Origin: Bradymonadia bacterium
GTDB taxonomy: Bacteria; Myxococcota_A; Bradymonadia; UBA7976; UBA1532
Length of the DNA stretch: 64,000 nucleotides
Reading direction: 5' to 3'
Assembly (NCBI GenBank): GCA_049318805.1
Contig: JBMOFP010000005.1
Coordinates: 960 to 64,959, forward strand
Part shown: piece by piece, positions 1,211 to 57,436 of the stretch
Position numbering within the stretch: position 1 is the first letter of the stretch
How the letters are laid out: every line of letters starts with the position of its first letter
Translations under genes and position numbers: made by a program
The notes under the pieces: model-generated
What the model was told of the DNA's origin: nothing
Databases searched by the model: none
The model's input: only the letters and a program-made list of their open reading frames with translations

Positions 1211-1224
1211 CCGGGCGCTCGGTC

Positions 1225-1974: not shown

Positions 1975-1980
1975 GCCGCC

Positions 1981-3858
<1,878 letters not shown>

Positions 3859-11198: not shown

Positions 11199-11203
11199 CC
11201 ACC

Positions 11204-29336: not shown

Positions 29337-30905
29337 ATGCGCTCGATGCTGCTGACCCTGGTCGTGACCGGCCTGCTGGCCGCTCCGATGACGGCCCGGG
29401 CGGCCGACGACTCAATGGACTTCGCGCCCGTGAGCGTCGAAGGCGACAAGGAAGCTGCGGGTGAGCTCGAAGAGGCGCTCGCGGCGTACAAGAAGAAGGA
29501 CTGGCTTCGCGCCAGCCTGATTCTGCACCGGGTCGTCTCGCGCAACGAGGTGGCCGTCACGCCCATCGAGCAGAAGGCGGAGTACTCGCTCGGCAAGACC
29601 CTCTACCGACTCGGTCTGTTCCAGGCCTCCCTGAACTTCTTCGACCGTGTGGTCCAGGCGGGTTCCGAGCACCGCTACTTCAAGGCGACCTGCAAGTGGC
29701 TCTACTACTTGTCTCGCAAGCTCTCCGGGGATCCGGGGCTCCTCGAGAAGATCGCGAAGTTCAAGCCCGAGGACTGCCCGGTCGACTTCCGCGCCGAGAT
29801 GGCCTACCTGCTCGGGCAGTACCACTACAAGAAGGGCTCGATGCCCCAAGCGCTCGAGGCGCTGGCCAAGGTCACGCCGGAGTCGCGGTACTACCCGAAG
29901 GCCAAGTATCTCCAGGGCATCGCCTACGTTCGCCAGGAAGAGCCGAAGCCCGCGGTCGAGGCCTTCAAGGACCTTCTCCGGGCGACTGCCGAGTCGAACA
30001 ATCCGAGCGAAGACCTCAAGTATTTCAACCAGTTGGCGGTCCTGAGCATGGCTCGGGTGTTCTACAGCACCGGGCAGTTCCGGCAGGCGGTCAAGTACTA
30101 CGACCAGATCCCGCTCGACAGCGTGTTGTGGCTGGACGGCCTCTTCGAGGCGAGCTGGTCCTTCTTCCGGCTCAACAACCACGAGAAGGCGCTGGGCAAC
30201 CTTCACACGTTGAACTCGCCGTTCTTCTCGGACGAGTACTTCCCCGAGGCGCCCATCCTCGCGGCGGTCATCTTCTATTCGAACTGCAACTACGAGAAGA
30301 CCCGGAACACGATCAACGACTTCCGAGCCACGTTCGAGCCGCTCCGCGACGAGATCAAGGGCTACCTGGAGTCGTACTCGGACCCGACGGAGCTCTACGG
30401 ATTCCTGAGCCGGCTCCAGAGCTCCGAGAAGGCGCTGTCCCCGCGCGTCGGTCAGATCTTGAACGCCGCCTTCCAGGACCAGCAGCTCAAGCGCATCGCG
30501 GCCTACGTCAAGGAGCTCGACCGCGAGGTCGACCTCATCCGGCGCTCGAAGTCGAGCTGGTCGCAGAGCGAGCTCGCGAAGCTCATCGTGCAGGAGATCG
30601 AGGTCATCAAGTCCCTCGCCCAGCATGAGGCCGGCGGCCTCGCCAAGGCGCGTCTCCAGCGTGTCACCAACGAACTCAACGAGCTCGTCAGTCAGTCGCT
30701 GAAGGTCGAGTTCGAGGTGAACACGGCCGAGAAGGGCATCGTCGAGAACCGGCTCCAGGGGGCGGGTTTCGAGAACAAGTCCGGGGCCAAGGGACCGGTC
30801 TACGCCACCGACGACGAGCACGTGTACTGGCCCTTCACCGGGGAGTACTGGCGCGACGAGCTGGGTTACTACCTGTACACGATCAAGTCGGAGTGCGGTC
30901 GATGA
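29337..30905 (+). CDS. Secreted TPR-repeat protein (522 aa)
   Basis: The signal peptide is MRSMLLTLVVTGLLAAPMTARA and TPR-like helical repeats follow. The stop overlaps the next gene's ATG (ATGA). Confidence 0.8.
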   Translation: MRSMLLTLVVTGLLAAPMTARAADDSMDFAPVSVEGDKEAAGELEEALAAYKKKDWLRASLILHRVVSRNEVAVTPIEQKAEYSLGKTLYRLGLFQASLNFFDRVVQAGSEHRYFKATCKWLYYLSRKLSGDPGLLEKIAKFKPEDCPVDFRAEMAYLLGQYHYKKGSMPQALEALAKVTPESRYYPKAKYLQGIAYVRQEEPKPAVEAFKDLLRATAESNNPSEDLKYFNQLAVLSMARVFYSTGQFRQAVKYYDQIPLDSVLWLDGLFEASWSFFRLNNHEKALGNLHTLNSPFFSDEYFPEAPILAAVIFYSNCNYEKTRNTINDFRATFEPLRDEIKGYLESYSDPTELYGFLSRLQSSEKALSPRVGQILNAAFQDQQLKRIAAYVKELDREVDLIRRSKSSWSQSELAKLIVQEIEVIKSLAQHEAGGLAKARLQRVTNELNELVSQSLKVEFEVNTAEKGIVENRLQGAGFENKSGAKGPVYATDDEHVYWPFTGEYWRDELGYYLYTIKSECGR

Positions 30906-33900: not shown

Positions 33901-34141
33901 GGCCGAGCGTGCTCAGCCCGTGGAAGCGAAGGCCATCGAGGCCTACGTGACCTGCGTGAAGAAGGCGCAGGAGCTCCGCTGGTTCAACGAGTGGTCGGAC
34001 CTGTCGGCCCGTGAGCTCGCCCGCCTGAATCCCAAGGAGTACCGGTACGACGGTGAAGTCCGGTCCAAGCCCGATCATTTCGGTACGACCGTCTTCCGTC
34101 AGCCGTTCATCGCGACCCTGCCGACGCAGGAGGAGCAGTAA
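30902..34141 (+). CDS. Large periplasmic TPR protein (1079 aa), GltD/AgmU-like
   Basis: The signal peptide is MKWLNLGLRGAVLCAAFGAAFGVAHA and the protein has more than 15 TPR-like repeats. Its position and size match the first gene of the Myxococcus G1 gliding cluster. The assignment rests on architecture and gene order, not on measured sequence identity. Confidence 0.8.
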   Translation: MKWLNLGLRGAVLCAAFGAAFGVAHAQPQKKQVEIKAQAPADIGAPESKSGVSAKDKGPKYNREQDLRGGKSADTVSEEKFQEQLRLLRKLIDATGDKDPTKADLYDRLSELYWQRSFDLSIKAFDREEECRKKFGGKPNPAQTATCEGERKRLQASSEKYREDAIGVYKEIVRNFPNYPRLDSVLFALAYNYQQKGELEGAKRIYVELVKRYPRSIHVADTLTNIGEIYFDAGDVDQAQKAYQKVVTNYKEAETYGYALYKLGWCFYNQGDFKQALAQFLMVLKHANEATGKNRRLAGLKKEAMRDMVRTYVNIEEANPNQAIGFFRKHAPDDYLQLSENLAELYSLTGQFDKSNRLYRDLIAQQPNSYKTVGFQRMIAFNTRAMSRDPTEIVKEVKRLVDLWRKVKDAKDADPKRVAADKEGFEELLRSLSVTMHIQWTKTKNPDDYAIAFEMYKDYVETFPDGPNTYMLQFYQAELLYAGQKWEAAARAYERTLELKAQGEHTEDAAQGAVLSYKKLIDIKQDRGKGGIDDVESNTTTEGVPAAKPLPETHVRFIKACDLYVKFVKSSEYLVDIEYDAARIYYDFNQFDEAVPRFKDISEKHPEHRLAVFAANLLLDTYNLKGQMDELDKQVDSFLKIYTPQRDPEFYALLMKLKQQSAFKKCQGIERNKEWVRAAACFKGYAAAYPQSEYLDKAFFNAALNYEREKMLEQSIEMKLKIVNEVPQSELVPKALYQTAGNLHALAIYSQAAKIYEAYAEKFPKEENARDALRNAAVFRQGLGEYDQALVDSAAYMKLIGSKPDEAAEVFFTMGLIYEKQEKWDEVIRHFNEYQRKHGAAGRIDLRLEAPVRIGNAYEKKKDDANAQKAYASSYAAYGKLSDGEKAALTTGLNSVAEARFKMGEAIRREFDEVKLKIFAYKNVKKFIDEMTAVIVKKSELIAKARTVYLEVIELKSPNWALAALTRIGQMFQQLANDIYDSPAPGSFNEEQVEVFKGAMAERAQPVEAKAIEAYVTCVKKAQELRWFNEWSDLSARELARLNPKEYRYDGEVRSKPDHFGTTVFRQPFIATLPTQEEQ

Positions 34142-35415
34142 TGTTGGTCGTGTCGATGGTTCGCCGAGCGGCTTTCCCGCTCGCAGCGATGCTGGTCGCG
34201 TGCGGTGGTTCGGCGCCCAAGCCCGAGTCCGCAGGGACCGAGGACACCGCGCCGGCTGCGGGCGAGGCGCCCCGCGCGGCCGCGCCGAAGGTCAAGCGTG
34301 CGGCCGCCGAGGCCTTCGCCGAGGCGTCGAAAGAGTACGCCAAGGGCAAGACCCGCGACTGGGCTCGGATCGAGTCTGCCCTGAAGGACGCCGTCGACGA
34401 GGATTCGAAGTTCGCCGAGGCCTACTTCAATCTCGGCGTCGCTGCGGAGATGCAGGGCAAGAAGGACGAGGCGCGCGACTGGTACCAGAAGGCGCGCGAG
34501 AAGAACGCGGCCTTCGGTGACGGCCTCGTGAACCTCGCCGCGCTTTTGCAAGAGGACGGTCGCAAGGGCGAGGCCGAGGGCAACTACCAGCAAGCCATTC
34601 AGGCCGAGCCGCTCAACGGTTTCGCGCACCTCAACCTCGCGATGTCCGCCAAGGGGCGCAAGGACTACTCGGACGCGGTCAAGCGCGTTCGGACCGCGCT
34701 CAAAGAGGACAGCCAGAACATCCAAGCCTACGTGATCCTGGCCTGGACCTACTACGACATGGGCAAGTACGAGCTCGCGAAGCTCGTGTGCTCCCAGGCA
34801 CTGAACGTCAACGGCGACGAGCCCGCCGTGCACAACATTCAGGGCCTCGTGTACCTGAAGATGCAGGACGTGACCCGTGCGCTTGCGGCCTTCCAGAAGG
34901 CCGTCGAGCTCGACCCGAACTACGTGCCGTCGCTCTTCAACATCGGCGCCATCACGTTCAGCTACAAGGACTACGAGGCGAGCTACCGGGCCTTCGACCA
35001 GGTGGTGAAGCTCGAGCCGAAGAACGACGAAGCGCTGCTCTCCAAGGCGGTCGCGGCGCGCGGCATGGGCAACTTCGAAGAGGCGGAGCGGGGCTACAAG
35101 GCCGTGCTCGAGCTCAACGAGCGCAGCTCCGCGGCCCACTTCAACCTGGGTGTGCTTTACCAGGAGTTCATGCAGAAGCTCGACCTGGCGCAGAAGTCCT
35201 ACGAGAACGTGCTGCGGGTCGAGCAGGCGGACCAGGCGCTGCGCAAGGACGCGACGGAGCGCATCAAGCAGCTCCAGATTCAGATCCAGAACCAGAAAGA
35301 GGCCGAGGCGATGATGCGCCAGCAGGCCGAAGAGGACAAGAAGCGGGCTGCCGAGGCACCGCCTGCGCCGCCCCCGGCCCCCGAGAGTGCTCCGGCTTCG
35401 GCGCCGACCCCCTGA
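34141..35415 (+). CDS. TPR lipoprotein (424 aa), GltE/AglT-like
   Basis: The start overlaps the preceding stop (TAATG) and is preceded by an AGGAGGAG ribosome-binding site. The lipobox is LVACGG. TPR repeats run through the protein, and the C-terminus is Pro/Ala-rich. Confidence 0.8.
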   Translation: MLVVSMVRRAAFPLAAMLVACGGSAPKPESAGTEDTAPAAGEAPRAAAPKVKRAAAEAFAEASKEYAKGKTRDWARIESALKDAVDEDSKFAEAYFNLGVAAEMQGKKDEARDWYQKAREKNAAFGDGLVNLAALLQEDGRKGEAEGNYQQAIQAEPLNGFAHLNLAMSAKGRKDYSDAVKRVRTALKEDSQNIQAYVILAWTYYDMGKYELAKLVCSQALNVNGDEPAVHNIQGLVYLKMQDVTRALAAFQKAVELDPNYVPSLFNIGAITFSYKDYEASYRAFDQVVKLEPKNDEALLSKAVAARGMGNFEEAERGYKAVLELNERSSAAHFNLGVLYQEFMQKLDLAQKSYENVLRVEQADQALRKDATERIKQLQIQIQNQKEAEAMMRQQAEEDKKRAAEAPPAPPPAPESAPASAPTP

Positions 35416-35551
35416 GTACGTTGCGTCGGACGGCGGAATTTCGGAACCGCGTCGCGGCCCCGGTGTCCAAAAGAATGGTCGGTTCAGGAGTCGCCGCCTA
35501 TGATGCGGACGACTCGGGGTCGCCCGGAACCAGCGCGTAGGGAGACATCAA

Positions 35552-35830
35552 ATGGCACGGATTCTGTGGTCTGCGACGGTCGTGGCAGTGACGTTGCTCG
35601 GGGCGAGCGCAGCGCTCGCTCAGGAAGACGTCGTGACGGACGCGGAGAACCCGGGTGTCGTCTACAAGAAAGAGACCACGTACGACTTCGAGGACGACGT
35701 CGTCGAGGGCTCGTTCATTCGACCCGAGGGCGAGTATCTCGACTCGCGTCGTGCCGCCCGGCACAGCAGCTTGATCAAGATCCGGGAGTCCTTCGTGCCC
35801 GAGATGCTCAAGTCCGCCGAAGACCTCTGA
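35552..35830 (+). CDS. Small secreted protein (92 aa), GltF-like by position
   Basis: The signal peptide is MARILWSATVVAVTLLGASAALA. A GGGAGA ribosome-binding site is present. Confidence 0.6.
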   Translation: MARILWSATVVAVTLLGASAALAQEDVVTDAENPGVVYKKETTYDFEDDVVEGSFIRPEGEYLDSRRAARHSSLIKIRESFVPEMLKSAEDL

Positions 35831-35858
35831 AGCCGCCGTCAGTCCGAGAGAGACGTAC

Positions 35859-37670
35859 ATGAGCGACAAGCCCACAATTCAGTTCGAGATCTACGACGGC
35901 GACCGGCTGCTGCGCACCGAGGTGCTGGCGGAGTCGACGATCAAGATCGGCAAGTTGTCGTCCTCCCATCTGCGGATCGACGACGACGACGTCTCGCGGA
36001 TGCACGCGGTGATCGAGGCCGGGAGCGCGGACGACGTGGTCGTGCTCGACCTCGGCAGCACTTCGGGGACCTTCGTCAACGGCCAGCGGGTGACGAAGCA
36101 GCGCTTGCGCTCCGGCGACGAGCTTCAGCTCGGCCGGCACCGCGTGGTCGTCACGGTCTCGGGTCAGTCGAGCGCGGCTGCGCGTCCGAGCGCGGACGCG
36201 ATGGCGACGACTCAGGTGCGGCCCGACGAAATGGGTGCGCCTCGACGGGCCGTCGTGCTCGAAGAGGACGAGAGTGACTCCGACGGGACACGGGCCCTCG
36301 AGGTCGTGGCCATGCTCGGCGATTCGGTCATCGAGGTGGCGCATCTTCGCGGTGGCCAGTTCACGATCGGCCAGTCCGATGGGGTCTCGCACTTCGTGGC
36401 GGCAGAGTCCGTGCCCGAGGACCCCTTCGTGCTCGCGTCGACGGACGGCGCGGAGATGGTCGTCAACGTCCCCGACGGAGTGACGGGGGACGTGCTCTTC
36501 GACGGGCGCGTCTTCGGCCTCGACGAGCTGCGGAAAGAGGGCAAGCTCAGCAAGAGCACGGTGGCGCGCAGCAGCGCCCTGCGGCTGCCTCCGAAGGCGC
36601 GCGCACGGCTCAACTTCGGCGACGCCTCGTTCCTCGTCAGCTCGGTGGCCGCGGCCCGTCCGCTGCCGCCGATCGGCTTCTCCAGCCTCTTCGACGGCCA
36701 CTTTGGCCGGTACTTCCTGGGTGCGCTCGCGTTGCACCTGCTGCTCATCGGGATCGTGCTCAGCGTGCCCGAGGATGCGAGTCGTTTGAGCTTGGATGGC
36801 TTCGACCTGCAGGAGAAGTGGGTCGAGTTCCAGCTCAAGCCCGAGTCCGAGAAAGAGGAGAAGCTCGAGGACCTCTTCAAGGACATGAAGGATGAAGGCG
36901 AGGCCGCTGCCAAAGCCCGCGAGGACGAGGGCAAGATGGGCAAGAAGGACTCGGACGAGAAGGACAAGCGGTGGAACCTGAAGGGGCCGCCGGACCAGAA
37001 GGAGATTCAGTTCGCGAAGGAGCGCGCCAAGATGGAGGCGCTCAACACCGCGAACGCGGCGTTCAACCAGCTCGAAGGCCAGATGGCCGCGGTTTGGGGT
37101 ACCCAGGACCGCGCGCTCGGCGCCGACGCCGTGTCGGCCCTCGGGAACATGTTCGGCAGCCAGGTCGGTGACGCCGGCGGCTTCGGCGGCTTCGGTACGG
37201 CCGGCGCGGGCCGAGGCGGCGGCGGCTTCAGTGAGACCTCCATCGGCGTCGGCAACGTCGGCACCATGGGCCGAGGGGGTGGCGAGGGTGGATCCGGCTA
37301 CGGGCGGGGCGTGTCCCGCCTCGGCGAGCGTACGGGCAAGGTGCCGCAGGTCGTGCCCGGCAAGCCCATCGTGCAGGGCTCGCTCGACATGGAGACCATC
37401 CGGCGCATCATTCGGCAGCACCAGAACGAGTACAAGTACTGCTACGAGAAGCAGCTGAACATCAAGCGGGACCTCGCCGGCAAGATCACCGTGAAGTTCA
37501 CGATCTCCGGCAACGGGAGCGTGATCGCGGCGACCATCGAAGAGTCGACGATGGGTGACCGGGACGTCGAGGGCTGCCTGACCGACCGCATTCGGCGCTG
37601 GATTTTCCCGGAGCCCAAGGGCGGCGGCATCGTCATCGTCAAGTACCCGTTCGTCTTCAAGGCGAGCTGA
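35859..37670 (+). CDS. FHA domain - TM - Gly-rich linker - TonB-C-like domain protein (603 aa), GltG/PglI-like
   Basis: The N-terminal FHA domain reads IGKLSSSHLRIDDDDVSRMHAVIE…STSGTFVNGQRV. The transmembrane segment is YFLGALALHLLLIGIVLSV. A GGFGGFG…GRGGGEGGSGYGRG low-complexity region follows. The C-terminal 90 aa (…IRRIIRQHQNEYKYCYEKQL…KITVKFTISGNGSV…) have a TonB_C-like fold signature. Confidence 0.85.
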   Translation: MSDKPTIQFEIYDGDRLLRTEVLAESTIKIGKLSSSHLRIDDDDVSRMHAVIEAGSADDVVVLDLGSTSGTFVNGQRVTKQRLRSGDELQLGRHRVVVTVSGQSSAAARPSADAMATTQVRPDEMGAPRRAVVLEEDESDSDGTRALEVVAMLGDSVIEVAHLRGGQFTIGQSDGVSHFVAAESVPEDPFVLASTDGAEMVVNVPDGVTGDVLFDGRVFGLDELRKEGKLSKSTVARSSALRLPPKARARLNFGDASFLVSSVAAARPLPPIGFSSLFDGHFGRYFLGALALHLLLIGIVLSVPEDASRLSLDGFDLQEKWVEFQLKPESEKEEKLEDLFKDMKDEGEAAAKAREDEGKMGKKDSDEKDKRWNLKGPPDQKEIQFAKERAKMEALNTANAAFNQLEGQMAAVWGTQDRALGADAVSALGNMFGSQVGDAGGFGGFGTAGAGRGGGGFSETSIGVGNVGTMGRGGGEGGSGYGRGVSRLGERTGKVPQVVPGKPIVQGSLDMETIRRIIRQHQNEYKYCYEKQLNIKRDLAGKITVKFTISGNGSVIAATIEESTMGDRDVEGCLTDRIRRWIFPEPKGGGIVIVKYPFVFKAS

Positions 37671-37837
37671 GGTCGTCCCGGCGCGCGTGGCGGCGCTGCG
37701 GCCCGCCGACTGCACGTTGAACGGTGTTCCCGTCGGGGCTTGACGTCGCAAGGCGTGGGTGCGAGAACGCGCGGGGTCGCGGGCGGCATGCCCGCGTGCG
37801 TTCGCGGGCCGCACGCCCGCACAAGGCTGAGAACGCG

Positions 37838-38716
37838 ATGCGCAGCACTCTCCTGTCGATGTCGTTGCTGGTGGCGGTGGCCGCGGTGGGCTGCAACCGC
37901 GAGCGCAACCAGTCGATTCAGCTCATGAACAAGGGCATCGCCCAGTTCAATCTCAACGATACGACCGGGGCGGTCGTGGCGCTGAACCAGGCCACCTCGG
38001 TCGATCCGACGAACGACGCGGCGTTCTACTACCGCGGGCTCCTGAAGTACCAACGGACCTCGGACTATCCCGAGGCCGTCAAGGACTTCAAGAAGGCCAT
38101 CGAGGTCAACGGCGAGAACCATCTCTACCACTACCACCTGGGCAAGGTGTTGAGCCGTCAGGGCGAGTGGGCCAGCGCAATCAACGCGCTCGAGAAGGCG
38201 ATCGAGCGTAAGCCGGAGCATGCGGCCAGCCACTACCACCTGGGGGCGGCCCTGGAGCAGCAGGCGAAGTTCGATCGCGCCCAGGAAGAGTACGTGGCCG
38301 CCATCAAGGCGCAGCCGCGCTTCGCCGACCCGTATGTCGCGTTGGGCAACCTCTACGCGCGGTTCGAGAAGCTGCCGGAGGCCGTGCAGGTCTTCAAGAA
38401 CGGCATCGAGAACAACCCCGAGAAGGCGGAGCTGCGCCACGATCTGGGGGTCGTCTACCAGAACCAGCAGCGCTTCGACGACGCCATCGGCCAGTTTCAG
38501 GCCGCCGTCAAGCTGAAGCCGACGTACCTGAGCGCGCTGTTCAACCTCGGGATGGCGTACCAGCAGACCGACAACGCAGAGCAAGCGATCACCCACCTCA
38601 AGCTCTACCTCGGTCGTCGGCAGGCGGGCGAGGACGCCCTGCGTGTTCGAACCGCCGAAGATACGATCGCGAAGCTCGAGGCCGCGGCACTCGCGCCCCC
38701 CCCCTCGACGCCCTGA
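37838..38716 (+). CDS. TPR lipoprotein (292 aa)
   Basis: The lipobox is LLVAVAAVGC. The protein has 6-7 TPR repeats (AFYYRGLLKY…, HYHLGKVLSRQGEW…, HYHLGAALEQQ…, YVALGNLYAR…, RHDLGVVYQNQQRF…, LFNLGMAYQQ…). Confidence 0.8.
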   Translation: MRSTLLSMSLLVAVAAVGCNRERNQSIQLMNKGIAQFNLNDTTGAVVALNQATSVDPTNDAAFYYRGLLKYQRTSDYPEAVKDFKKAIEVNGENHLYHYHLGKVLSRQGEWASAINALEKAIERKPEHAASHYHLGAALEQQAKFDRAQEEYVAAIKAQPRFADPYVALGNLYARFEKLPEAVQVFKNGIENNPEKAELRHDLGVVYQNQQRFDDAIGQFQAAVKLKPTYLSALFNLGMAYQQTDNAEQAITHLKLYLGRRQAGEDALRVRTAEDTIAKLEAAALAPPPSTP

Positions 38717-38827
38717 AAAGAGCGTCGCCCGCGCCTGTCGTCGACGGACACGGGCGGCGGGCGCCGAGCGAAGTTCCGAGCGCGGACCCGGGCCGTCGCA
38801 TCACCTTTCACCACGCCGTTTGTTGCG

Positions 38828-38856
38828 TTGTGAGCCCCAATACTCGGTGCTATAAC
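38828..38856 (+). promoter_or_regulatory. Putative internal sigma-70-like promoter for the giant TPR gene (TTGTGA-17-TATAAC)
   Basis: The site lies 85 bp upstream of the ATG at 38942. A GC-rich hairpin at about 38723-38765 follows the preceding gene. Confidence 0.3.
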
Positions 38857-38941
38857 CCCGGCACTTCGGGCGGGCGCCCGACCGCAGTCCGCGTGTCCGA
38901 CTGCGCTTGTCTCCCCTGGATTCCCCGTAGAGGCGACGTTG

Positions 38942-41900: not shown

Positions 41901-44900
41901 AGGTCATCCTCGACCACGAAGAGGAGCCGTCGGCCCGTCGTCGGTTGATGATGCGGAGCGCATCGGTCGCCGAGCAGTCGCTGCGGAATCCCGACGGCGC
42001 TTTCGAGTGGGTGCGCCGTGTACTCCGGGAGTTGCCGGCCGACGCGGAAGCGCGGACGGAGCTGGAGCGCCTCGGCGGTTTGACGAACCAGTGGGCGACG
42101 GTGCACGACGACCTCGTCGAGGCGCTGGGGGCCGTCGGGCCCGACGCGGACGCCCAGCTCGCCCTGACTCTGACGCTCGCGCGCCTCCTGGACGAGAAGC
42201 TCGGCCAGAGCCACGACGCCCTCCAGCGCTTCCACGACGCGCTGTCCATCGACCCCGACAATCGCGCCGCGCTCGACGCCGTGGAGCAGCTCTACGCGCG
42301 TATGGCCAACTGGCCCGAGCTCCTCGGCATCCTCGACCGGAAGATCGCGCTCACGGACACCCTCGACGAGCGCAAGGTCCTGCTCCGCAAGCAGGCCGCG
42401 ATCTTCGAGGAGCAGCTGGACGACGCGCTCTCTGCCATCGAGAAGCACCGCGCCGTCGTGGACGAGGACAAGACGGACACCGAGGCCCTCGCGGCGCTCC
42501 ATCGGCTCTTCAAGGCCGGTGAACAGTGGGATGCGCTGCACGCGGTGCTCCTGCAGCAGTTGGCGCTTGCCCTCGAGGCGGGCGATGCGTCGGTCACCGC
42601 GCTCAAGCTCGAGCTCGGGGCCATCGAAAACGCGCACCTCGGTCAGACCGGGGAAGCCGTCGAGCGGTACCGCGAGGTTCTCGCGGTCGAAGCCACCCAC
42701 GTCGGCGCGCGTGAGGCGCTCGAGGCGTTGCTGGACGACCCCGAGCACCGCCGAAACGTCGCGCTCATCCTGGAGCCCCTCTACCAGGACCAGGGGGCCT
42801 GGCAACCGTTGGTCCGCGTGCTCGAGATCGAGCTCGAAGAGACGACCGACGGGCCCGCTCGATTCGAGCTGCTCGAGCGGATCGGGACGCTCCAGGCGGA
42901 GCGCATCGCCGACGTCGACCTCGCCTTCGATGCGTTCGCGCGCGCTTTCCGCGAGACGCCGTCGAGCCGCGTCGCCGTGACCCGACTCACGGAGCTCGCC
43001 GAGGCGGGCCAGAAGTTCAGCGAGTTCACGGCGCTGCTCGAGGACGTCGTGCCCGACGTGAAGGACGCCGGGCTCTCCCTCGACCTGCTCGCGCGCCTCG
43101 CGACGACCTACGAGGAGAAGCTCGATGATGGCGCGCGGGCCATCGACGCGCACAACCGCGTGCTCCTCGTGGAGCCGGAGCACCGGCCGTCGATCGTCGC
43201 GCTCGAGCGCCTGTACCAACGCAACGAGATGTGGCCCGAGCTCCTGTCGATCTACCGGCGGCAGCTCGAGCTCGCGCCCGATGCCGGCACGAAGGAAGAG
43301 CTGCAGTTCCGCGCCGGCGCGCTGCTCGAGGACATGCTCGGGGACGCGCCCGAGGCGATCGCGACCTACGGAGAGGTGCTGTCGCAAGACCCCTCGAACG
43401 TGCGCGCGCTTCAGGCCCTCGACCGCCTCTACCAGCAGCAGGCGATGTGGGTCGAGCTCTCCGAGTGCATCGAGAAGCAGCTCGCGCTGTCGACGGATGT
43501 GGCCGAGCAGACCCGACTTCGGGTTCGCCTCGGCACACTCCACGAGGGCGCCCTCGGCAACGCCCTGCTCGCCATCGAGACCTACCGCGCGGTGCTCGCC
43601 GCCGATCCCGACAACGCGGAGGCCATCGACGCCCTCGAGCGGCTGCTCGCGGAGCCGAGCCACCAGCCCACCATCGCCGACATCCTCGAGCCCCTCTACC
43701 GCGCCCGCGACGAGTGGCAGAAGCTCATCGGGGTCTACGAGATTCAGCGTGAGCACGCCGAGGAGCCGAAGCGGCAAATCGAGCTGCTCCATCGAATCGC
43801 CGATCTGCACCAGAACCGCGGCGGCTCGCCCGAGGAGACGTTCCGGAGCTACGCGCGGGCCTTCGCGGTCGAACCGAGCGACCCCCGAACGCTGGCTGAG
43901 CTCTCGCGGATCGCCGAGGCCTTCGAGATGTGGGGCGACCTCGTCGCCGTCTACGAGGTGCAGGTCGAAGAGATCGCGGACGCGGTCGTCGCGTCGGACG
44001 TGCACAAGCGGATCGCGCGGGTGCAGCGTGCGCAGCTCAACGACCTCGAAGGTGCACGTCGGCACTACGAGGCGGCGTACGCGAGCGACGATACGGATGG
44101 TGAGGCCATCGACGCGCTCGAGGCGCTCTACTTCCACTTCCAGCAGTGGAACGAGCTCGTCGCTGTGCTTGTCCGCAAGGTGGAGCTCACCGAGGACGTC
44201 GACGCGAAGAAGGGCCTGCTTTTCCGCGTCAGCGCGCTCTACGAGGAGATGCTCGAGGATCCGTATCGGGCCGTCGAGACGTACCGTGCCGTGCTCGAGC
44301 TGGACGCCGTCGACGCACGCGCGCTCGACGCCCTCGAGCGCATCTTCCTCACCCTCGGCCAGTGGGAGGACCTCATGGAGGTGCTCCACCGCAAGGCGGA
44401 GCTGACCGAGGAGTTGAGCGCACGCAAGGACATCTACTACGTCATCGGCGCGGCTTATGACCGTGAGCTGGACGACCTGACGCGCGCCGTCGAGACGTAC
44501 CAGAAGGTCCTTTCGTGGGACGCCGAGGACCAGACCGCGCTCACCGCCCTCGACCGCTTGTACGCGCGGATGGAGAAGTGGGACGAGCTGCTCGCCGTGC
44601 TTCGGCGCTCCGTCGAGGTCGAGGGTGAACCCGAGGCCCGGGTCGCGCTGCGCTTCCGCGTCGCGAACCTCTACGAGACCTCCATGGACGACGTGGCGCA
44701 GGCCGTGTCCGGCTACGCCTCGATTCTCGCGGATGTGCCGGGCCACGAGCCCAGCCTCCAAGCCCTGGAAGGACTCGTCCGTTCGGACCGCGAGGCGCGC
44801 CGAGCGACCTCGGTGCTCGAGCCCGTGCACCAGGCGGCCGGGGCCTGGGAGCGTTTGATCGGGGTGTGGCGCAGCCTGCTGGACGTGACCACGGATCCCG

Positions 44901-47900
44901 AGCAGCGCACGGCGCTGCGCATGCAGATCGGTCAGGCCTGGGAGGACATGCTCGGCGACGCCGACCGCGCCTTCGAGGCTTTCGGCGACGCGTTCCGAGA
45001 CGATCCGAACGAGGCTCAAGCGGTCGTCGCGCTGGAGCGCGTCGCGCGCAGCGCGGACCTGTGGCGGCCCATGGTCGAGCTCGTCGAGAACCAGCTCAAT
45101 CGGCTCCACGGTGAGCCCGTCGCGCGTGACTTGTACCTGCGGGTCGCGCGCATCCACGAGGTCGAGCTCGGGTCGAACCTGGACGCCATCGAGCGGTACC
45201 GTCGAGTCCTCGAGCTCGAGCCCGACGACGAGGGTGCGATCCTCGCCCTCGATCGCCTGTACGAGAAGGAAGGCCTGTGGGTCGAACTCGTGGAGGTGCT
45301 CCGGCTCGAGATCGCCCGGGCCGAGGCGACCGATGCTCGGGTCTCGCTCCACCTGCGACTCGGGACTCTCCTCGAGAGCGCGCTCTCGGACGTCGAAGGC
45401 GCCATCGCGGCCTACCGTGAGGTGCTCTCCGAGGCCCCGGGTCATGCTGAGGCCATCGCGGCCCTCGAGCGCCTCTTCGCGGCCGGCCACGCCCAGCCCC
45501 AGGTCGGCGAGCTCCTCGAGCCCTACTACGTCGAGCTCGAGGACTGGACGGCCCTGCATGGGCTCCTCGAGGCGCTGCTCGCCCATCGCGAGCCGGGCGA
45601 GGACCGCATGCGGCACCTCCACCGTCTGGCCGAGCTCGCCCTCGAGCGACTCTCCAACGAGTCCAAGGCGTTGGACTGGTATGGCGTGTCGTTCCGCGAG
45701 ACCCCGGAGGACGAGACCGCACGCAAAGAGCTCGGTCGACTCGCGCAGCGCACGGGTCGCTTCGAGGACCTCGTCCGGATCTTCGCCGAAGGCCTGCAGC
45801 GCACTCAGGATGCCGAGCTGCTGCGCTCCGTCAGCCACGAGATGGCCACGCTCTATCGGACCCGACTGCACGAGGACACGGCCGCGGAGGACGTGTACCA
45901 GTACATCCTGCAGATCGATCCGGTCGACCGCGACGCGCTCCGCGGCCTCGATGAGCTCTTCCTCGCCCAGCACCGCTGGGCGGAGCTCGTGGACGTCCTC
46001 AAGCGTGAGATCAGCTCGACCTACGACGAAGCCGAGCTGCTCGCGTACATGTTCCGCCTGGGCCAGGTCTACGAGACCTACCTCGGCGAGCTGGACCTCG
46101 CGGTCGGTCAGTACCGCGGCATCCTCGACCAGGACCCGCACCACCTGGGGGCCCTCGAGCGACTCGAGCGCATCTACCACGCGCGTGAGGAGTGGGAGCC
46201 GCTCTACGACGTGTATGGGCGGATGTCCGAGGTCGCCGAGCTCGACGTGCGCAAGGCCGAGCTCTACGCGTCCATGGCGCGCATCGCCGAGAACGCGCTC
46301 GGTCGTCCCGAGGACGCCATCGACCTGTGGAACAAGGTGCTCGACCTCAAGGGCGAGGAGCCCGAGGCGCTGCGCGCCCTCGAGACGCTGCACGAGGCCC
46401 TCGAGCGGTGGCGCGAGCTGGTCGACGTGTGCGAGCGGCAGGTGAACCTCGTCGAGAACGATCCCGTGCGCGAGCTGGAGCTCTTCGCGAAGCTCGGCCG
46501 CGTGTGGGGGGACCACCTCGATCGCGAGCGCAACGCGCTCGAGAGCTGGGGCAAAGTCCTCGCCCTCGATCCGCTGCACGAGGGCGCACTGTGGGCCATC
46601 CGCGGCCTGCACGAGCGCACGGCCGACTTCGCCGAGCTGGCCCGGACGAACCACCGGCTGCTCGAGCTGCTGCCGGGCGGTGATCCGCGTCGAGTCGACC
46701 TCTATCGACAGCTCGGTGAGCTCTACCAGAAGTCGCTGGAGAACCCGACCGAGGCGATTCGCGCGTGGAACAGCCTGCTCGCGGTCGAGCCGCAGGACCC
46801 GGACGCCATCGACGCGCTCGAAGAGCTGCACACCGCCGCCGAGGATTGGCGGTCCTGTGTCGCCGTGCTCGAGCGGAAGGCCGAGGGTACGGCCGACCTC
46901 TTCGACCGTACGAGCATCCTCTTCCGCATCGCCGAGATGTGGGAGAAGAACATCGGTGAGGTGGACGGCGCGAAGCGTGCGTACGCCCAGATCATCGAGC
47001 TGCAGCCGTCGAGCCTCGACGCCTCGCAGGAGCTCGAGCGCCTCTACGAGGCCGACATGCAGTGGGAGGAGCTGGTCAACCTGCTCCTCGTGCGGGTCGA
47101 GCACACGACCGAGGCCTTCGAGCGTGAAGCGCTCTTGAAGCGGACCGCCTTCGTCTTCGAGGACAAGCTCCAGAGCGCGGACAACGCGTTCGTCGTCCTG
47201 TCCAAGGCCTTCGAGGAGAGCCGCGACGACGAGGGTCTCGGCGCCGAGCTGGAGCGCCTCGCCGGCATCGAGGGCAAGTGGAACGAGCTCGTCTCGCTGT
47301 ACGAAGGGGTCATTCAGAGCATCGGCCAGACCGCCGACTCCGTCCCTCTGCACCTTCGGGTCGCAGGCTGGTACGACCGACACCTGGGCACACCCGAGCA
47401 CGCCGGAACCCACTACCAGTATGTGCTGACCATCGAGCCCGACAATGCGCGGGCCCTGGGCGCCCTCGAGAACCTGCTCGAGCGCTACAACAAGTGGCCC
47501 GAGGTCGTCGCCGTGCTCCAGCGCCGCGCCGAGCTCTCCAACGAGCCGGACGAGCGCAAGGCCGCCCTGGAGAAGATGGCGCGCATCCTCGAGGAACGCC
47601 TCGAGCGACCCGATGCGGCCATCGACGCCTGGCAGCAGGTCATGGCGATCGACGACACCGAGATGTCGACGCTGCAGGCGCTCGAGCGGCTCTACGCGAC
47701 CCGCGAGCGGTGGCAGGACCTGGTGCACACCCTGACGCGTCAGGCCCAGGTGCTGTACGACAGCGCTCAGATCGTCGAGTGTCACCTCCGCATCGGCGAG
47801 CTCTACGAAGGGCGGCTCAGCGCGCCCGATCGGGCCGTGGAGGCTTACCGCCAGGCGCTCTCCGTCGATGATCGGTGCCTCGACGCGATGATCGCCCTCG

Positions 47901-50900
47901 AGAAGCTCTTCACCGCCCGCGTGCGTTGGACCGAGCTGCTCGACGTGTACGAGATGATGCTGAACGTGCGGACCGAGCCCACGCAGCAGCTCACGATCTA
48001 CGGTCGCATCGCGCACATCCAGGAGACTGAGCTCAACGACGCCTCGGCGACGATCGAGACCTACCGCAAGATGCTGTCGGTCGACGCATCGAACCCCCAG
48101 CCCGTGCGCGCCCTGGAGCGGCTCTACACGAGCCACGAGCGTTGGCACGACCTGGCCGAGGTGTATCGGCTTCACCTGGACGCGGTCCAGGACACGCGGG
48201 CACGCATCGAGAACTCGACCGCCCTGGCGCGGCTCTATCGTGAGCAGCTGCGGGACCCGTACGCCGCGATCGAGACTCTCGGCCCGGTCCTCGAGCTCGA
48301 CGGGCAGCACCTGCAGACCCTCTCGACGCTCGGTGAGCTCTTCGCCGAGGTTCAGGACTGGCCCAACGCCATCGACGCCCTCAGCCGCGAGTCCCGACTC
48401 TTGTCGGACCGGGGCGCCGTGCTCGACCGGATCTTCCGGGTGGGCCGGATCTACGAGGAGCGCATCGGCGACCTCGACCAGGCCGAGACCTGGTACAAGA
48501 GCGCGCTCGAGCACGACCCGAACTTCCTGCCGGCGCTCGTGGCCCTCAAGGGCCTGCACGTGCAGCGCGCCGAGTGGCCCGAGGTCGTGCGCACCCTGAA
48601 GATGATCGAGGCCGCGACCCGGAGTCTGCCCGAGAAGAGCATGTGCCTCTTCGAGATCGGGCAGGTGTACGAGCGCTCACTCGAAGACCGCGGCACGGCC
48701 GTGGACTACTACGAGCAGGCGATGGACCTGGACGACCGCAACGTCTCCGCGGCCGCGCCCCTCGTGGAGGTCTACCTCGGCGACCAGCGGTGGGAGCGCG
48801 CCGAACCCCTGCTCGACCTGATCCTCGAGGCGCGGCAGCGTGAGGGCGTGGACCCGCGCGACCTGCAGGCGCTCGCGTACAAGCTGGGCTACGTCGCCGA
48901 GCAGCTCCACAAGGACGAGAAGGCCGTCGCCCAGTACAAGCAGGCCTACGAGCTCGACAGCACGCACCTGCCGACGCTGCAGGGCATGGGCAACCTGCTC
49001 TTCCGTCGGGAGGACTGGGACCGCGCGTTCAAGATCTACCAGACGATCCTCGTGCACCACCGCGAGAACCTGCGGGACGAGGAGGTCGTCGACGTCTTCT
49101 TCCGCCAGGGCTTGGTGAAGCTGAAGGTCGGCGAGCGGCGCAAGGCGCTCGACTTCTTCCGTAAGGCGCTGGACCTCGCGCCGCACAACGAGGAGGTGCT
49201 GCGCGCCATCGTCGACGTGCATGAGAAGCAGGGCGACTGGGAAGACGTCATCAACTTCCGGCGCAAGCTGCTGGAGCTCACGAAGGACGCGAACGAGCAG
49301 TTCCTGTCCCTCGTCAGCATCGGCGACATCTTCAAGGAGCAGCTGCGCAGCCCGTCCCGCGCGATCGAGGCCTACAAGGAGGCTCTCGGGCTCCAGGCCG
49401 ACAGCCGCATCGTGCTCGGCAAGCTGCTGGACCTGTACCAGGAGGCTCGCCTCTGGGCGGAGGCCGTGGACATCCTCACGCGCCTCGCGGAGCTCGAGCG
49501 CGACCTGGCGCGTCAGGCCAAGTACTACTACACCGTCGGTGTCATTCAGCGGGACGAGCTGAAGGACAACTTCGTCGCCGTCCGTACGCTGGACAAGGCA
49601 CTGGACGCGGACCCGGCGATGCTGAAGGCCTTCCAGGCCATCGACCAGATCCTCACCCAGGAGCGGGACTACGAGCGCCAGGATCGCTACTACCGCAAGA
49701 TGCTCAAGCGGGCGATGGAGCAGAAGCTCGACGACAAGCTGATCATCACGCTCGCGAAGGGCCTGGGTGAGATCAACCGGTCGCGCCTGAAGAAGTACGA
49801 AGAGGCGATCAAGGCCTACAAGATCGCCCTCGGTCGTCAGCCCGACGACCTCCAGACGCACACGATCGTGGCTGAGCTCTACGAGCTCAACGAGCAGCCC
49901 GACCGCGCCGTGGCCGAGCACTATCGAATGATCGAGCTCAAGCCGCAGCACGTGGAGAGCTACCAGCAGCTGCGCCGGCTCTTCATGGAGAGCCAGCGCT
50001 TCGACGAGGCCTGGTGTGTCTGCCAGGTGCTCTCGTACCTGGGCCACGCCAACGCCGACGAGCGCGCCTTCTTCGAGAAGTACCGCTCCAAGACCCTGAC
50101 GCAGGCGCGCAAGGCCCTCGACAACGAGCAGTGGGCCCTCGTCTACCACCCCGAGCAGAGCCTCCTGCTGGCCCAGTTCTTCCAGCGGATGTACCAGTAC
50201 TCCGTGCCGCTCATGGCCGTGCAGCACAAGGATCTGAAGCTGCACAAGAAGAAGGACCTGCTCGAGCCGACGGAGCAGACGCCGTTCAACAGCGTGCTCA
50301 ACTACGTGACCCAGGTCACGCGGCTGACCCGCGTCGAGGTCTACCGGGCGCCCGACGGCGGCTCCGGCATCGTGACGGCGAACCTGAATCCGCCCGGCAT
50401 GATGGTCGGCGCAGACGTGCTCAGCGGTCGGTCCCTGCAAGAGCTGGCGTTCATCCTCGCCAAGCAGCTCTTTGTGATGGGCCAGCACTACTACCTGGCG
50501 ACCATCGACCCGACGTACGAGCGCCGCAAGGACCGCCTCGCACGCATCGTGTACGGCGTCATGCAGCTCGTGAATCCGGCGACGGACGTGCCGGTGAAGG
50601 ACGAGGGGCTCATCGAGGCCTATCGGGCGATCCCGCCCGCGGACCTGGCCGAGCTCCAGAAGTTCATCACCAAGATGAGCGAGAATCCCCAGCAGCACCT
50701 GAACCTGTCGAAGTGGCTGGAGATGGTCGAGCACTCCTCCAATCGCCTGGCTTTCCTGCTCAGCAACGATCTCGGGGCGGCGGTGCGCAGCCTGAAGAAC
50801 GAGACGGGGCAGTTCAGCAAGGCCCCGGTGCAGGACCGGGTCCGCGAGATCGTGCTCTTCGCCCTGAGCGAGAACTACTTCAAGCTCCGCAAGGCGTTGG

Positions 50901-50917
50901 GTCTCGCCATTGGCTGA
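38942..50917 (+). CDS. Giant cytoplasmic TPR-repeat protein (3991 aa), GltI/AgmK-like
   Basis: The gene is a single uninterrupted 12-kb ORF. The protein has no signal peptide. TPR-like repeats (LYxxLxxWxELxxVL-type) run along its whole length. An internal EAAPEPVV x11 tandem repeat is present. It follows the GltD-H-like genes in the same order as the M. xanthus G1 cluster. Confidence 0.85.
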   Translation: MNERIRELFDAVVQDPSNHVAVDELDGLLRAEGEWSSLVDLQIHLAQNSAEPADAVRRLKIAGQVTEAKLSDPRRAVEIYGASVEADTDARGTLAHMRTLLAGLEDWAAWVQVGEAEVERIESPAERADLIYEIGEVLEEKIADQERAMVCYQAAFQTDQACLRALYAARRIYRQTGHWEMVAQLLDLELQSVTDPDRQAEIYQELGNLLLYDLQNTEMARHCFAAYLKLRPDDADMQAALAELGGAPGEPLGDQTESAPTGQVGEDTEMVGEGTEALAGEATEMGAPAIAEPDLEAAPEPVAEAAPEPVVEAAPEPVVEAAPEPVEEAAPEPVVESAVEPVAEAAPEPVVEAAPEPVVEAAPEPVVEAAHDPVVEAAQAPVAEATPFVETTAPVDLAQLRALAESGDREAQLEALEALAKEAPASEGLAELYLGLVASAPGELDVYLRVGRHLGPASASTLKAIASGLETLARENAGGQGAALSAERVLFGTLHLDEGKTADFKLRELAKTAGADPLAREWQIQRLVETGKWRNIQQMLTDAAGGETPESRGAALRRMAVLALERARDTDKATDFWRQVHLADKHDREARAALQSLYAASGKWNAYVDVLKLDVEEIPDSDRARKVDGLKALIRVYTQHLNLDAMVVTLYGQVLALAPDDAEAIAALVEKYEGMRRWPDLVALLQKQVDGAVEQSQRVDLNLRIAHLYLDKFRNQAEAIKAYEAVLADEPANRTAIEALQDMYEKRREWEKLVAVQRQLADAEPDSAARAAKYKEIADNATKKIRKPSISLELWEQVLEIEPGDVDALRALVALYESEKQWDRLVEAVEALVERVSDTAEKIDLLQRAGTVLQDRVGDRAGSVRFWQGLLALDAENRRAHEALKKALVELGDWDGLTALFGDRGKWDELVRLLDGQVGVQKDDATRIDLLFRTATIFDTHLGQKDRAVRALERILQLEPRNVVGARALEPIYEEAKEFRKLANVLEVILDHEEEPSARRRLMMRSASVAEQSLRNPDGAFEWVRRVLRELPADAEARTELERLGGLTNQWATVHDDLVEALGAVGPDADAQLALTLTLARLLDEKLGQSHDALQRFHDALSIDPDNRAALDAVEQLYARMANWPELLGILDRKIALTDTLDERKVLLRKQAAIFEEQLDDALSAIEKHRAVVDEDKTDTEALAALHRLFKAGEQWDALHAVLLQQLALALEAGDASVTALKLELGAIENAHLGQTGEAVERYREVLAVEATHVGAREALEALLDDPEHRRNVALILEPLYQDQGAWQPLVRVLEIELEETTDGPARFELLERIGTLQAERIADVDLAFDAFARAFRETPSSRVAVTRLTELAEAGQKFSEFTALLEDVVPDVKDAGLSLDLLARLATTYEEKLDDGARAIDAHNRVLLVEPEHRPSIVALERLYQRNEMWPELLSIYRRQLELAPDAGTKEELQFRAGALLEDMLGDAPEAIATYGEVLSQDPSNVRALQALDRLYQQQAMWVELSECIEKQLALSTDVAEQTRLRVRLGTLHEGALGNALLAIETYRAVLAADPDNAEAIDALERLLAEPSHQPTIADILEPLYRARDEWQKLIGVYEIQREHAEEPKRQIELLHRIADLHQNRGGSPEETFRSYARAFAVEPSDPRTLAELSRIAEAFEMWGDLVAVYEVQVEEIADAVVASDVHKRIARVQRAQLNDLEGARRHYEAAYASDDTDGEAIDALEALYFHFQQWNELVAVLVRKVELTEDVDAKKGLLFRVSALYEEMLEDPYRAVETYRAVLELDAVDARALDALERIFLTLGQWEDLMEVLHRKAELTEELSARKDIYYVIGAAYDRELDDLTRAVETYQKVLSWDAEDQTALTALDRLYARMEKWDELLAVLRRSVEVEGEPEARVALRFRVANLYETSMDDVAQAVSGYASILADVPGHEPSLQALEGLVRSDREARRATSVLEPVHQAAGAWERLIGVWRSLLDVTTDPEQRTALRMQIGQAWEDMLGDADRAFEAFGDAFRDDPNEAQAVVALERVARSADLWRPMVELVENQLNRLHGEPVARDLYLRVARIHEVELGSNLDAIERYRRVLELEPDDEGAILALDRLYEKEGLWVELVEVLRLEIARAEATDARVSLHLRLGTLLESALSDVEGAIAAYREVLSEAPGHAEAIAALERLFAAGHAQPQVGELLEPYYVELEDWTALHGLLEALLAHREPGEDRMRHLHRLAELALERLSNESKALDWYGVSFRETPEDETARKELGRLAQRTGRFEDLVRIFAEGLQRTQDAELLRSVSHEMATLYRTRLHEDTAAEDVYQYILQIDPVDRDALRGLDELFLAQHRWAELVDVLKREISSTYDEAELLAYMFRLGQVYETYLGELDLAVGQYRGILDQDPHHLGALERLERIYHAREEWEPLYDVYGRMSEVAELDVRKAELYASMARIAENALGRPEDAIDLWNKVLDLKGEEPEALRALETLHEALERWRELVDVCERQVNLVENDPVRELELFAKLGRVWGDHLDRERNALESWGKVLALDPLHEGALWAIRGLHERTADFAELARTNHRLLELLPGGDPRRVDLYRQLGELYQKSLENPTEAIRAWNSLLAVEPQDPDAIDALEELHTAAEDWRSCVAVLERKAEGTADLFDRTSILFRIAEMWEKNIGEVDGAKRAYAQIIELQPSSLDASQELERLYEADMQWEELVNLLLVRVEHTTEAFEREALLKRTAFVFEDKLQSADNAFVVLSKAFEESRDDEGLGAELERLAGIEGKWNELVSLYEGVIQSIGQTADSVPLHLRVAGWYDRHLGTPEHAGTHYQYVLTIEPDNARALGALENLLERYNKWPEVVAVLQRRAELSNEPDERKAALEKMARILEERLERPDAAIDAWQQVMAIDDTEMSTLQALERLYATRERWQDLVHTLTRQAQVLYDSAQIVECHLRIGELYEGRLSAPDRAVEAYRQALSVDDRCLDAMIALEKLFTARVRWTELLDVYEMMLNVRTEPTQQLTIYGRIAHIQETELNDASATIETYRKMLSVDASNPQPVRALERLYTSHERWHDLAEVYRLHLDAVQDTRARIENSTALARLYREQLRDPYAAIETLGPVLELDGQHLQTLSTLGELFAEVQDWPNAIDALSRESRLLSDRGAVLDRIFRVGRIYEERIGDLDQAETWYKSALEHDPNFLPALVALKGLHVQRAEWPEVVRTLKMIEAATRSLPEKSMCLFEIGQVYERSLEDRGTAVDYYEQAMDLDDRNVSAAAPLVEVYLGDQRWERAEPLLDLILEARQREGVDPRDLQALAYKLGYVAEQLHKDEKAVAQYKQAYELDSTHLPTLQGMGNLLFRREDWDRAFKIYQTILVHHRENLRDEEVVDVFFRQGLVKLKVGERRKALDFFRKALDLAPHNEEVLRAIVDVHEKQGDWEDVINFRRKLLELTKDANEQFLSLVSIGDIFKEQLRSPSRAIEAYKEALGLQADSRIVLGKLLDLYQEARLWAEAVDILTRLAELERDLARQAKYYYTVGVIQRDELKDNFVAVRTLDKALDADPAMLKAFQAIDQILTQERDYERQDRYYRKMLKRAMEQKLDDKLIITLAKGLGEINRSRLKKYEEAIKAYKIALGRQPDDLQTHTIVAELYELNEQPDRAVAEHYRMIELKPQHVESYQQLRRLFMESQRFDEAWCVCQVLSYLGHANADERAFFEKYRSKTLTQARKALDNEQWALVYHPEQSLLLAQFFQRMYQYSVPLMAVQHKDLKLHKKKDLLEPTEQTPFNSVLNYVTQVTRLTRVEVYRAPDGGSGIVTANLNPPGMMVGADVLSGRSLQELAFILAKQLFVMGQHYYLATIDPTYERRKDRLARIVYGVMQLVNPATDVPVKDEGLIEAYRAIPPADLAELQKFITKMSENPQQHLNLSKWLEMVEHSSNRLAFLLSNDLGAAVRSLKNETGQFSKAPVQDRVREIVLFALSENYFKLRKALGLAIG
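39827..40090 (+). repeat. 24-nt in-frame tandem repeat (11 units; GAGGCCGCGCCGGAGCCTGTTGTG), encoding EAAPEPVV
   Basis: The repeat was read directly from the sequence. Units 2-6 use CCTGTTGTG codons and units 7-10 use CCGGTCGTC, so there are two homogenised sub-blocks. Confidence 0.9.
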
Positions 50918-57356: not shown

Positions 57357-57436
57357 GCGACGGAGGTTATAGCAGGCGAGGGCGGTTGCCGCGCGCGTCC
57401 GTGGTGCCTACCATCGACCCCGGAGGACCTCGAGGC

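Follow-up and report, generated by a model that had tools for sequence, protein, structure and literature searches.

Does an uncultured bacterium of the Bradymonadia carry an Agl-Glt gliding machine of the kind known from Myxococcus xanthus, and how much of that machine does it encode in one place? The question is raised by a 64,000-nucleotide (nt) stretch of DNA, here called the window, from a Bradymonadia bacterium (GenBank assembly GCA_049318805.1, contig JBMOFP010000005.1, positions 960 to 64,959 of the forward strand), in which an earlier note, made from the sequence alone, had described a run of genes resembling the glt genes of M. xanthus. Our analysis indicates that an Agl-Glt-type "gliding transducer" spanning the envelope is probably encoded, for the most part, by the block at 28547-50917: its periplasmic parts, its inner-membrane anchor, and its cytoplasmic scaffold, with the genes ordered as listed for Sorangium cellulosum. 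Sequence comparison makes the homology of the block to the M. xanthus Glt machinery firm. Hidden Markov model (HMM) E values reach 1e-124 and the order is kept in dozens of independent loci, which together lie far beyond chance. Since this order had already been catalogued in Sorangium, we regard the block as a new member of a known system and not as a new type of machine. That it serves gliding is our inference, made by analogy with the characterized system. The features of the block are as follows.

28547-28984, - strand: Cys-rich lipoprotein gene, candidate GltK/CglC-like; 145 amino acids (aa), lipobox FAGC, divergent from gltC
29337-30905, + strand: gltC-like; 522 aa, signal peptide, TPR
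30902-34141, + strand: gltD-like; 1079 aa, signal peptide, TPR
34141-35415, + strand: gltE-like; 424 aa, lipobox LVAC, TPR
35552-35830, + strand: gltF/cglF-like; 92 aa, signal peptide
35859-37670, + strand: gltG-like; 603 aa, FHA, one transmembrane (TM) segment at ~280-302, TonB-C-like tail
37838-38716, + strand: H', a TPR lipoprotein at the gltH position; 292 aa, lipobox AVGC, TPR
38942-50917, + strand: gltI-like; 3991 aa, TPR, without signal peptide or TM segment
39825-40101, + strand: 24-nt tandem repeat inside gltI; 11.5 copies, Tandem Repeats Finder score 316

Genes of the block and their protein families

The window has a G+C content of ~69%, and the seven co-directional open reading frames (ORFs) on the + strand between 29337 and 50917 show a strong third-position GC bias. 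These seven genes lie where the earlier note had placed them, and independent metagenome data yield the same products: on four independent contigs that encode an identical GltG-like protein, the gene calls are 522, 1079, 424, 92, 603, 292, and 3991 aa. The signal peptides, the lipoboxes LVAC and AVGC, the single TM segment of the 603-aa protein, and the absence of a signal peptide or TM segment from the 3991-aa protein are likewise as first described. The junctions are looser than the "mostly 4-nt overlaps" then reported. Only gltC and gltD overlap by 4 nt (ATGA), gltD and gltE overlap by 1 nt, and the remaining junctions are gaps of 136, 28, 167, and 225 nt, in order, with the start of the fifth gene taken from the metagenome gene calls. 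Directly after gltI lies rsmI (TIGR00096, 220.8 bits; cutoff, 167.9). Promoter and terminator scans were uninformative, and Rfam and tRNA scans gave no matches. A 120-aa ORF at 35500-35862 was rejected as a small gene, being in the wrong frame and having no matches; the real gene at this place is 35552-35830.

The 522-aa product had been taken for an additional secreted TPR protein preceding the cluster. It does lie upstream of the others, but it is not extra to Glt: it matches the NCBIfam gliding_GltC model NF033756 (E = 3.2e-124, 416 bits; cutoff, 450) over model positions 98-619 of 622, which makes it a clear member of the family of GltC, a G2-cluster protein in M. xanthus, with a score just under the equivalog cutoff. 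Its signal peptide is MRSMLLTLVVTGLLAAPMTARA, and it does not have the Lys-rich N-terminal extension present in Myxococcia-type GltC. The 424-aa protein matches gliding_GltE (NF033758) over nearly its full length (E = 1.4e-46, 159 bits; cutoff, 225), and the 92-aa protein matches gliding_CglF (NF033764) at E = 1.4e-25 (89.1 bits; cutoff, 90).

No NCBIfam model for GltD or GltI surfaced in any scan, and we therefore used as a proxy reference the locus L044, a Myxococcaceae metagenome-assembled genome (MAG) G1 locus with the order D-E-F-G-H-(ORF)-I that stands in for the M. xanthus sequences. L044 itself passes the equivalog cutoffs (GltE, 519 bits; CglF, 121; GltG, 765; CglE, 171.5). Against this proxy, similarity was significant for D, E, F, and I. 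In BLASTP the 1079-aa protein, which has a signal peptide and Pfam TPR matches, is 29% identical to L044 GltD over 1055 aa (E = 2e-102), the GltE-like protein matches its counterpart at 5e-24, and the GltF-like protein is 47% identical over 58 aa (E = 2e-18). Taken together, the NCBIfam models (E, F, and G) and BLASTP against L044 (D, 2e-102; I, 2e-62) bear out the GltD/E/F/G/I-like identities, in that order, that had been proposed.

From 30000 to 36000, the gltC-gltE region, G+C content drops to 63-65% (vs ~69-70% elsewhere) and AT skew is strongly positive (0.14-0.21). This probably reflects Lys/Glu-rich TPR proteins rather than a foreign origin.

The 603-aa protein matches the NCBIfam GltG model NF033760 (E = 2.9e-117, 393 bits; cutoff, 650). 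Its tail matches the AgmX/PglI C-terminal domain NF033768 (E = 1e-32, 112 bits; cutoff, 40), and it also matches TIGR01352 tonB_Cterm (28.7 bits; cutoff, 27.1) and the FHA domain PF00498 (63 bits). The protein is laid out as an FHA domain, a second FHA-like beta domain, the TM segment, a conserved Gly-rich linker, and a TonB-C-like AgmX/PglI tail. An AlphaFold2 model built from a 47-sequence alignment has an FHA domain at residues 1-105, a beta domain at 141-265 (pLDDT confidence score, ~88), a TM helix at 280-302, a low-confidence linker at 307-493, and an alpha/beta tail domain at 497-601 (pLDDT, ~91); in Foldseek, the model matched FHA folds at 2e-8. HMMs and the structural model thus both recover an N-terminal FHA domain, a juxtamembrane FHA-like domain, one TM segment, a long linker, and the tail, the same five-part layout published for M. 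xanthus GltG (PMC11761067). Within the linker, Gly columns at 421-484 are invariant across the 47 homologs. Such a run is in keeping with folding of the linker on a partner protein, and GltG has been proposed to wrap GltD in this way.

The giant GltI-like protein has TPR matches from residues ~794 to 3416. It is 26% identical to the partial L044 GltI over 1559 aa (E = 2e-62), a comparison that leaves the C-terminal domain outside because L044 GltI is incomplete. Against Bradymonadales and Polyangia orthologs it is 37-40% identical over 1467-2062 aa (E = 0, 754-1238 bits), whereas a control, an unrelated giant TPR protein from this organism, scored only 50 bits. The tandem repeat encodes (A)APEPVVE units and gives a Pfam Cornifin-like match at residues 283-374. 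In L082, a metagenome contig of this organism, the repeat is one unit shorter and GltI has 3983 aa instead of 3991 aa; this is either a copy-number polymorphism or an assembly collapse. This organism has a second giant TPR protein (L085 1-2557; 2840 aa), encoded ~9 kb past the right end of the window on the opposite strand, which resembles the GltI-like protein only weakly (50 bits).

These matches also bear on another reading, that of a Tol-Pal/TonB-like or generic TPR envelope cluster resembling Glt only through shared TPR, FHA, and TonB-C domains. In keeping with such a cluster, a good number of generic TPR models (YbgF, BamD, and PilW among them) match D, E, H', and I, and Pfam TonB_C is marginal for G (16.9 bits). 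The near-full-length matches to the GltC, GltE, CglF, and GltG models, however, far outscore the generic ones, D aligns with a true GltD at 2e-102 over 1055 aa, the seven-gene synteny is as in a bona fide G1 locus, and no TolQ/R/A/B or Pal gene adjoins the block. Judged on these comparisons, the generic explanation is effectively refuted, and we consider it extremely improbable.

Gene order across three Myxococcota classes

One scan of GTDB species representatives supplied the best 80 loci for comparison; the window's own genome and M. xanthus are not among them. The nearest loci, with 75-77% GltG identity, belong to uncultured MAGs labelled Bradymonadia, Myxococcota, or Myxococcales, whose names suggest lakes as their source. 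By tblastn, the order lipoprotein-C-D-E-F-G-H'-I recurs in >40 loci from the window's clade, the Bradymonadales, and Polyangia MAGs; Lujinxingia vulgaris (L034), which is cultured, and a Persicimonas sp. MAG (L040) are among its carriers. Loci of a clade grouping with the Myxococcaceae G1 locus lack H' and have a different layout, lipoprotein(-)-B-A-C-D-E-F-G-I. What the comparisons show is homology, the domain layout, and a synteny that holds across three Myxococcota classes. A GltG phylogeny, which the earlier note had suggested, was run as a neighbor-joining tree and places the window's clade sister to the Bradymonadales clade.

The Bradymonadales loci (Lujinxingia vulgaris TMQ2, NZ_VOSL01000054.1, and the Persicimonas sp. 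MAG) have an identical eight-gene layout, including the Cys-rich lipoprotein and H', at protein identities of 33-44%. They differ in that the Cys-rich gene is co-directional with gltC, whereas in the window it is divergent. In some Bradymonadales-type loci, extra TonB-C-tail paralogs stand between G and H'.

Additional genes between gltG and the TPR lipoprotein gene are present in some relatives: in L011 (11931-13475) the extra gene encodes a G paralog without the N-terminal FHA domain, and in L038 (12342-14209) there are two ~300-aa lipoproteins ending in an AgmX/PglI TonB-C-like tail. The extra tail proteins of L011, L038, and L049 were considered as GltJ and rejected, as they are G paralogs or VWA-type lipoproteins and not ZnR-GYF proteins.

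Outside this group, a known locus with the same layout is that of S. cellulosum So ce56, for which the order sce2914(C)-2915(D)-2916(E)-2917(F)-2918(G)-[sce2919, no Glt family]-2920/2921(I) is listed (Luciano et al. 2011, PLoS Genet, Table S2). The window has the same C-D-E-F-G-[one gene]-I order, and no gltJ follows its gltI. In Sorangium, gltJ is likewise not listed after gltI, aglRQS lie elsewhere (sce2991-2994), and so do the GltA/B-like genes (Luciano 2011). The window proteins are shorter (522, 1079, 424, and 603 aa, against 568, 1289, 497, and 681 aa for Sorangium GltC, GltD, GltE, and GltG; Sorangium GltF has 90 aa; Luciano 2011 Table S2), and the window GltI is a single 3991-aa ORF where Sorangium has two. 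Identity between window proteins and their Polyangia orthologs is ~30-40%. Because of the Sorangium listing and because G1 and G2 are also grouped in Anaeromyxobacter (Luciano 2011), the adjacency of gltC and gltD and the missing gltJ are normal outside the Cystobacterineae.

Compared with M. xanthus G1 (gltD-E-F-G-H-I-J, MXAN_4870-4862), the window has homologs of D, E, F, G, and I whose order and predicted localizations agree with those of M. xanthus, and the GltG proteins of the two share their domain layout; identities to the Myxococcaceae G1 locus are 26-47%. Of M. xanthus G2 (gltK-B-A-C, MXAN_2538-2541), the window has the GltC homolog and possibly a GltK-like lipoprotein. It differs from M. 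xanthus in fusing members of G1 and G2 into one block, in having a TPR lipoprotein in place of the GltH/CglE barrel, and in a locus without GltA/B or GltJ. The M. xanthus protein sizes stated in the earlier note hold only approximately: GltD is given as 1191 aa, and GltI as 4132 aa (Table 1) or 3822 aa (older Table S1) (Luciano 2011).

The description of the block as a divergent homolog from a lineage in which this machinery has not been studied stands. Its nearest relatives are uncultured MAGs, and the Bradymonadia literature within reach of our search, including a genomics paper, makes no mention of Glt or Agl. With respect to Glt/Agl, the lineage is unstudied.

Conservation across these loci also speaks to the idea that a planktonic lineage has given up gliding and that the block is what remains of a decaying Glt cluster. 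A remnant would suit a locus without several essential partners and a source organism that is uncultured and aquatic. All eight ORFs between 28547 and 50917 are nevertheless intact, with a strong coding signal from G+C at third codon positions. Across many MAGs of the window's clade, the proteins are 45-83% identical and the gene order is kept. In the window, the 12 kb of gltI run without interruption; the four independent assemblies examined reach only ~8.7 kb into it, but the gene calls on them give full products of 3983-3991 aa. The intact ORFs, this range of identity, and the kept gene order therefore argue for purifying selection, and we consider decay highly unlikely.

Two conserved lipoproteins

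The earlier note had set its fifth gene at the GltH position. As a TPR lipoprotein in that place, H' is as described; as a GltH homolog it fails, having no similarity to L044 GltH. GltH/CglE is a ~200-aa outer-membrane beta-barrel, and the 292-aa H' has generic TPR matches only; among the families listed for it (the best 25 of 38), none is CglE/GltH (NF033755). It resembles GltE at a generic TPR level, in several registers. We also rejected H' as a derivative of the MXAN_4864/65-equivalent ORF, the L044 counterpart of which it does not resemble. H' sits between G and I in the window's clade, the Bradymonadales, and the Polyangia, and is absent from Myxococcia-type loci. On these alignments, H' is a conserved member of the cluster and not a homolog of GltH. 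Polyangia MAG loci carry a TPR lipoprotein at the position matching sce2919, and by analogy we infer that sce2919 may be the H' equivalent in Sorangium.

The second lipoprotein gene lies directly upstream of gltC, on the - strand in the window's clade and on the + strand in Bradymonadales, and is also kept in Polyangia and Myxococcia-type loci. The family has nine conserved Cys columns (alignment A2), and 54 of 54 database homologs are named "hypothetical." Three of 26 family members weakly match the NCBIfam CglC model NF033754 (best, 5.6e-6; cutoff, 60 bits), and the window's own 145-aa protein does not match it. Its AlphaFold2 model (pLDDT, 77) has no analogue in the PDB. The 145-aa protein is therefore put forward as a candidate only for a GltK/CglC-like outer-membrane lipoprotein.

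Both H' and the Cys-rich protein probably serve at the outer-membrane end of the machine. They are part of what is modestly new here: two conserved lipoproteins that work on M. xanthus did not assign to Glt. As conserved and unstudied candidate Glt components, they are testable in culturable Bradymonadales or in Sorangium. One may go further and suppose that both are integral to an older form of the machine, kept in Bradymonadia-like lineages, Bradymonadales, and Polyangia, in which H' held the role later taken by the GltH barrel of the Myxococcia and no GltJ was present; gltI would then be older than the split of Bradymonadia from other Myxococcota. We offer this scheme tentatively and hold it to be doubtful.

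Missing partners, predicted function, and neighboring genes

Nearly every ORF of the window was scanned, and the search for a motor used approximate Escherichia coli TolQ/TolR sequences as probes. Several results weigh against a gliding transducer. In the 64-kb window and the 9 kb past its right end, we found no AglRQS/TolQR-type motor, no GltA/GltB barrel (TIGR04565), and no gene for GltH/CglE, GltJ, or CglB, and in M. xanthus, gliding requires each of GltH, GltJ, GltA/B, and GltK (PMC3169522). All scores against equivalog models fall below the NCBI curated cutoffs, and the proteins are therefore family-level homologs and not equivalogs. GltI is internally repetitive, which means that its alignment with L044 GltI is not uniquely collinear. 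Finally, Group B core complexes occur in nongliding bacteria, and the organism is uncultured, its gliding phenotype being a prediction from analogy.

MglA and AglZ are also absent from the window and the 9 kb past its right end. The search for GltJ found no second protein with an AgmX/PglI TonB-C-like tail anywhere in the window, in agreement with the initial observation that rsmI, and no GltJ-like gene, follows gltI. GltA/B-type genes do occur upstream of gltC in the Myxococcia-type loci L064, L071, L072, and L076. The TolQ/TolR probes matched in no locus with the full cluster; their matches were confined to the vicinity of G paralogs in L023 and L024.

Those two loci (L023 10001-18566 and L024 2016-13024) form a separate GltG-paralog clade without C, D, E, F, or I nearby and have a TolQ/ExbB-like gene 6-9 kb downstream of the paralog. 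They may represent a second motor-linked system in Polyangia-type MAGs.

The missing partners raise the question as to whether the block instead encodes an Agl/Glt-like envelope transport system with a job other than motility, either moving a surface polymer, as Nfs does for the spore coat, or acting as a "core complex" of the kind found in nongliders. This is the main alternative. It would account for a locus without GltA/B/H/J and a motor; gltC-D-E-G core sets exist in nongliders and paralogous sets have other functions (Luciano 2011); and the nearest MAGs, to judge by their names, seem to come from lake water, a setting in which gliding on surfaces is less obvious. M. xanthus Nfs (nfsA-H, MXAN_3371-3378) also shares the contiguous C-D-E-F-G order with the window and depends on the same kind of motor. 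The gene content, however, differs in both directions: A, B, and H barrels are part of the Nfs operon and I, J, and K are not, whereas the window has a GltI homolog, which is listed for Glt clusters only and not for Nfs (Luciano 2011), and no A, B, or H barrels were found in it. Nor does the block have the makeup of a Group B core complex, in which gltC-D-E-G and aglRQS share one operon without Group A genes, as the window has no TolQ/R-type genes and does have gltF and gltI. GltF and GltI both belong to the motility-specific Group A, and their presence therefore disfavors a nonmotility role. The same layout in gliding Sorangium and in Bradymonadales, and a KilF-like predation ATPase in the window that fits a surface-predator lifestyle, point in the same direction. 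We judge a nonmotility role unlikely.

Returning to a gliding transducer, two correlations support it: Bradymonadales isolates, which have the same type of locus, are reported to glide (PMC7188933), and Sorangium has the same layout with its motor encoded elsewhere. A mechanism can be outlined from genetic work on M. xanthus (PMC3169522) and from the model that Cambillau and Mignot built with AlphaFold; the protein contacts are carried over by analogy from their 2025 structural models. GltG would sit in the inner membrane, where its TM segment and juxtamembrane FHA-like domain would dock on an AglR5QS proton-driven motor encoded elsewhere. Its N-terminal FHA domain would bind the giant cytoplasmic TPR scaffold GltI, and its Gly-rich periplasmic linker and TonB-C-like tail would wrap the periplasmic TPR pillar GltD. 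GltE is predicted to bind GltD, GltF to bridge GltG and GltD to GltC, and GltC to dock beneath the outer-membrane platform.

With this locus, an uncultured, apparently aquatic lineage joins the carriers of a near-complete periplasmic and cytoplasmic Glt module, and the Sorangium-type fused C-I layout emerges as the common one outside the Myxococcia. A further modestly new point is the implication that gltI goes back beyond the Myxococcales ancestor proposed in 2011. The current picture of the gliding mechanism is unchanged.

Elsewhere in the window, a 625-aa protein (1981-3858, - strand) combines an N-terminal FHA domain with a TadA/CpaF-type ATPase (TIGR03819, E = 6e-35), and the adjoining gene (1225-1974, - strand) encodes a 249-aa protein with two FHA domains. 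This FHA-ATPase architecture is unusual and has been described for KilF, the ATPase in the Tad-like Kil apparatus with which M. xanthus kills prey. That apparatus is also reported in Bradymonadales (PMC8460266), and the KilF-like pair suggests a contact-dependent predator. Gene calls on each of the four metagenome contigs include a 380-aa ORF (26973-28115) between rplS and yraN that has no Pfam or NCBIfam match. Two sigma-54-dependent activators are encoded at 11060-12865, ~16 kb upstream of the glt block, and at 57125-58843, ~6 kb downstream of it. Also downstream of the block is the gene for a 972-aa Tricorn/PD40-type protein (54438-57356, - strand).

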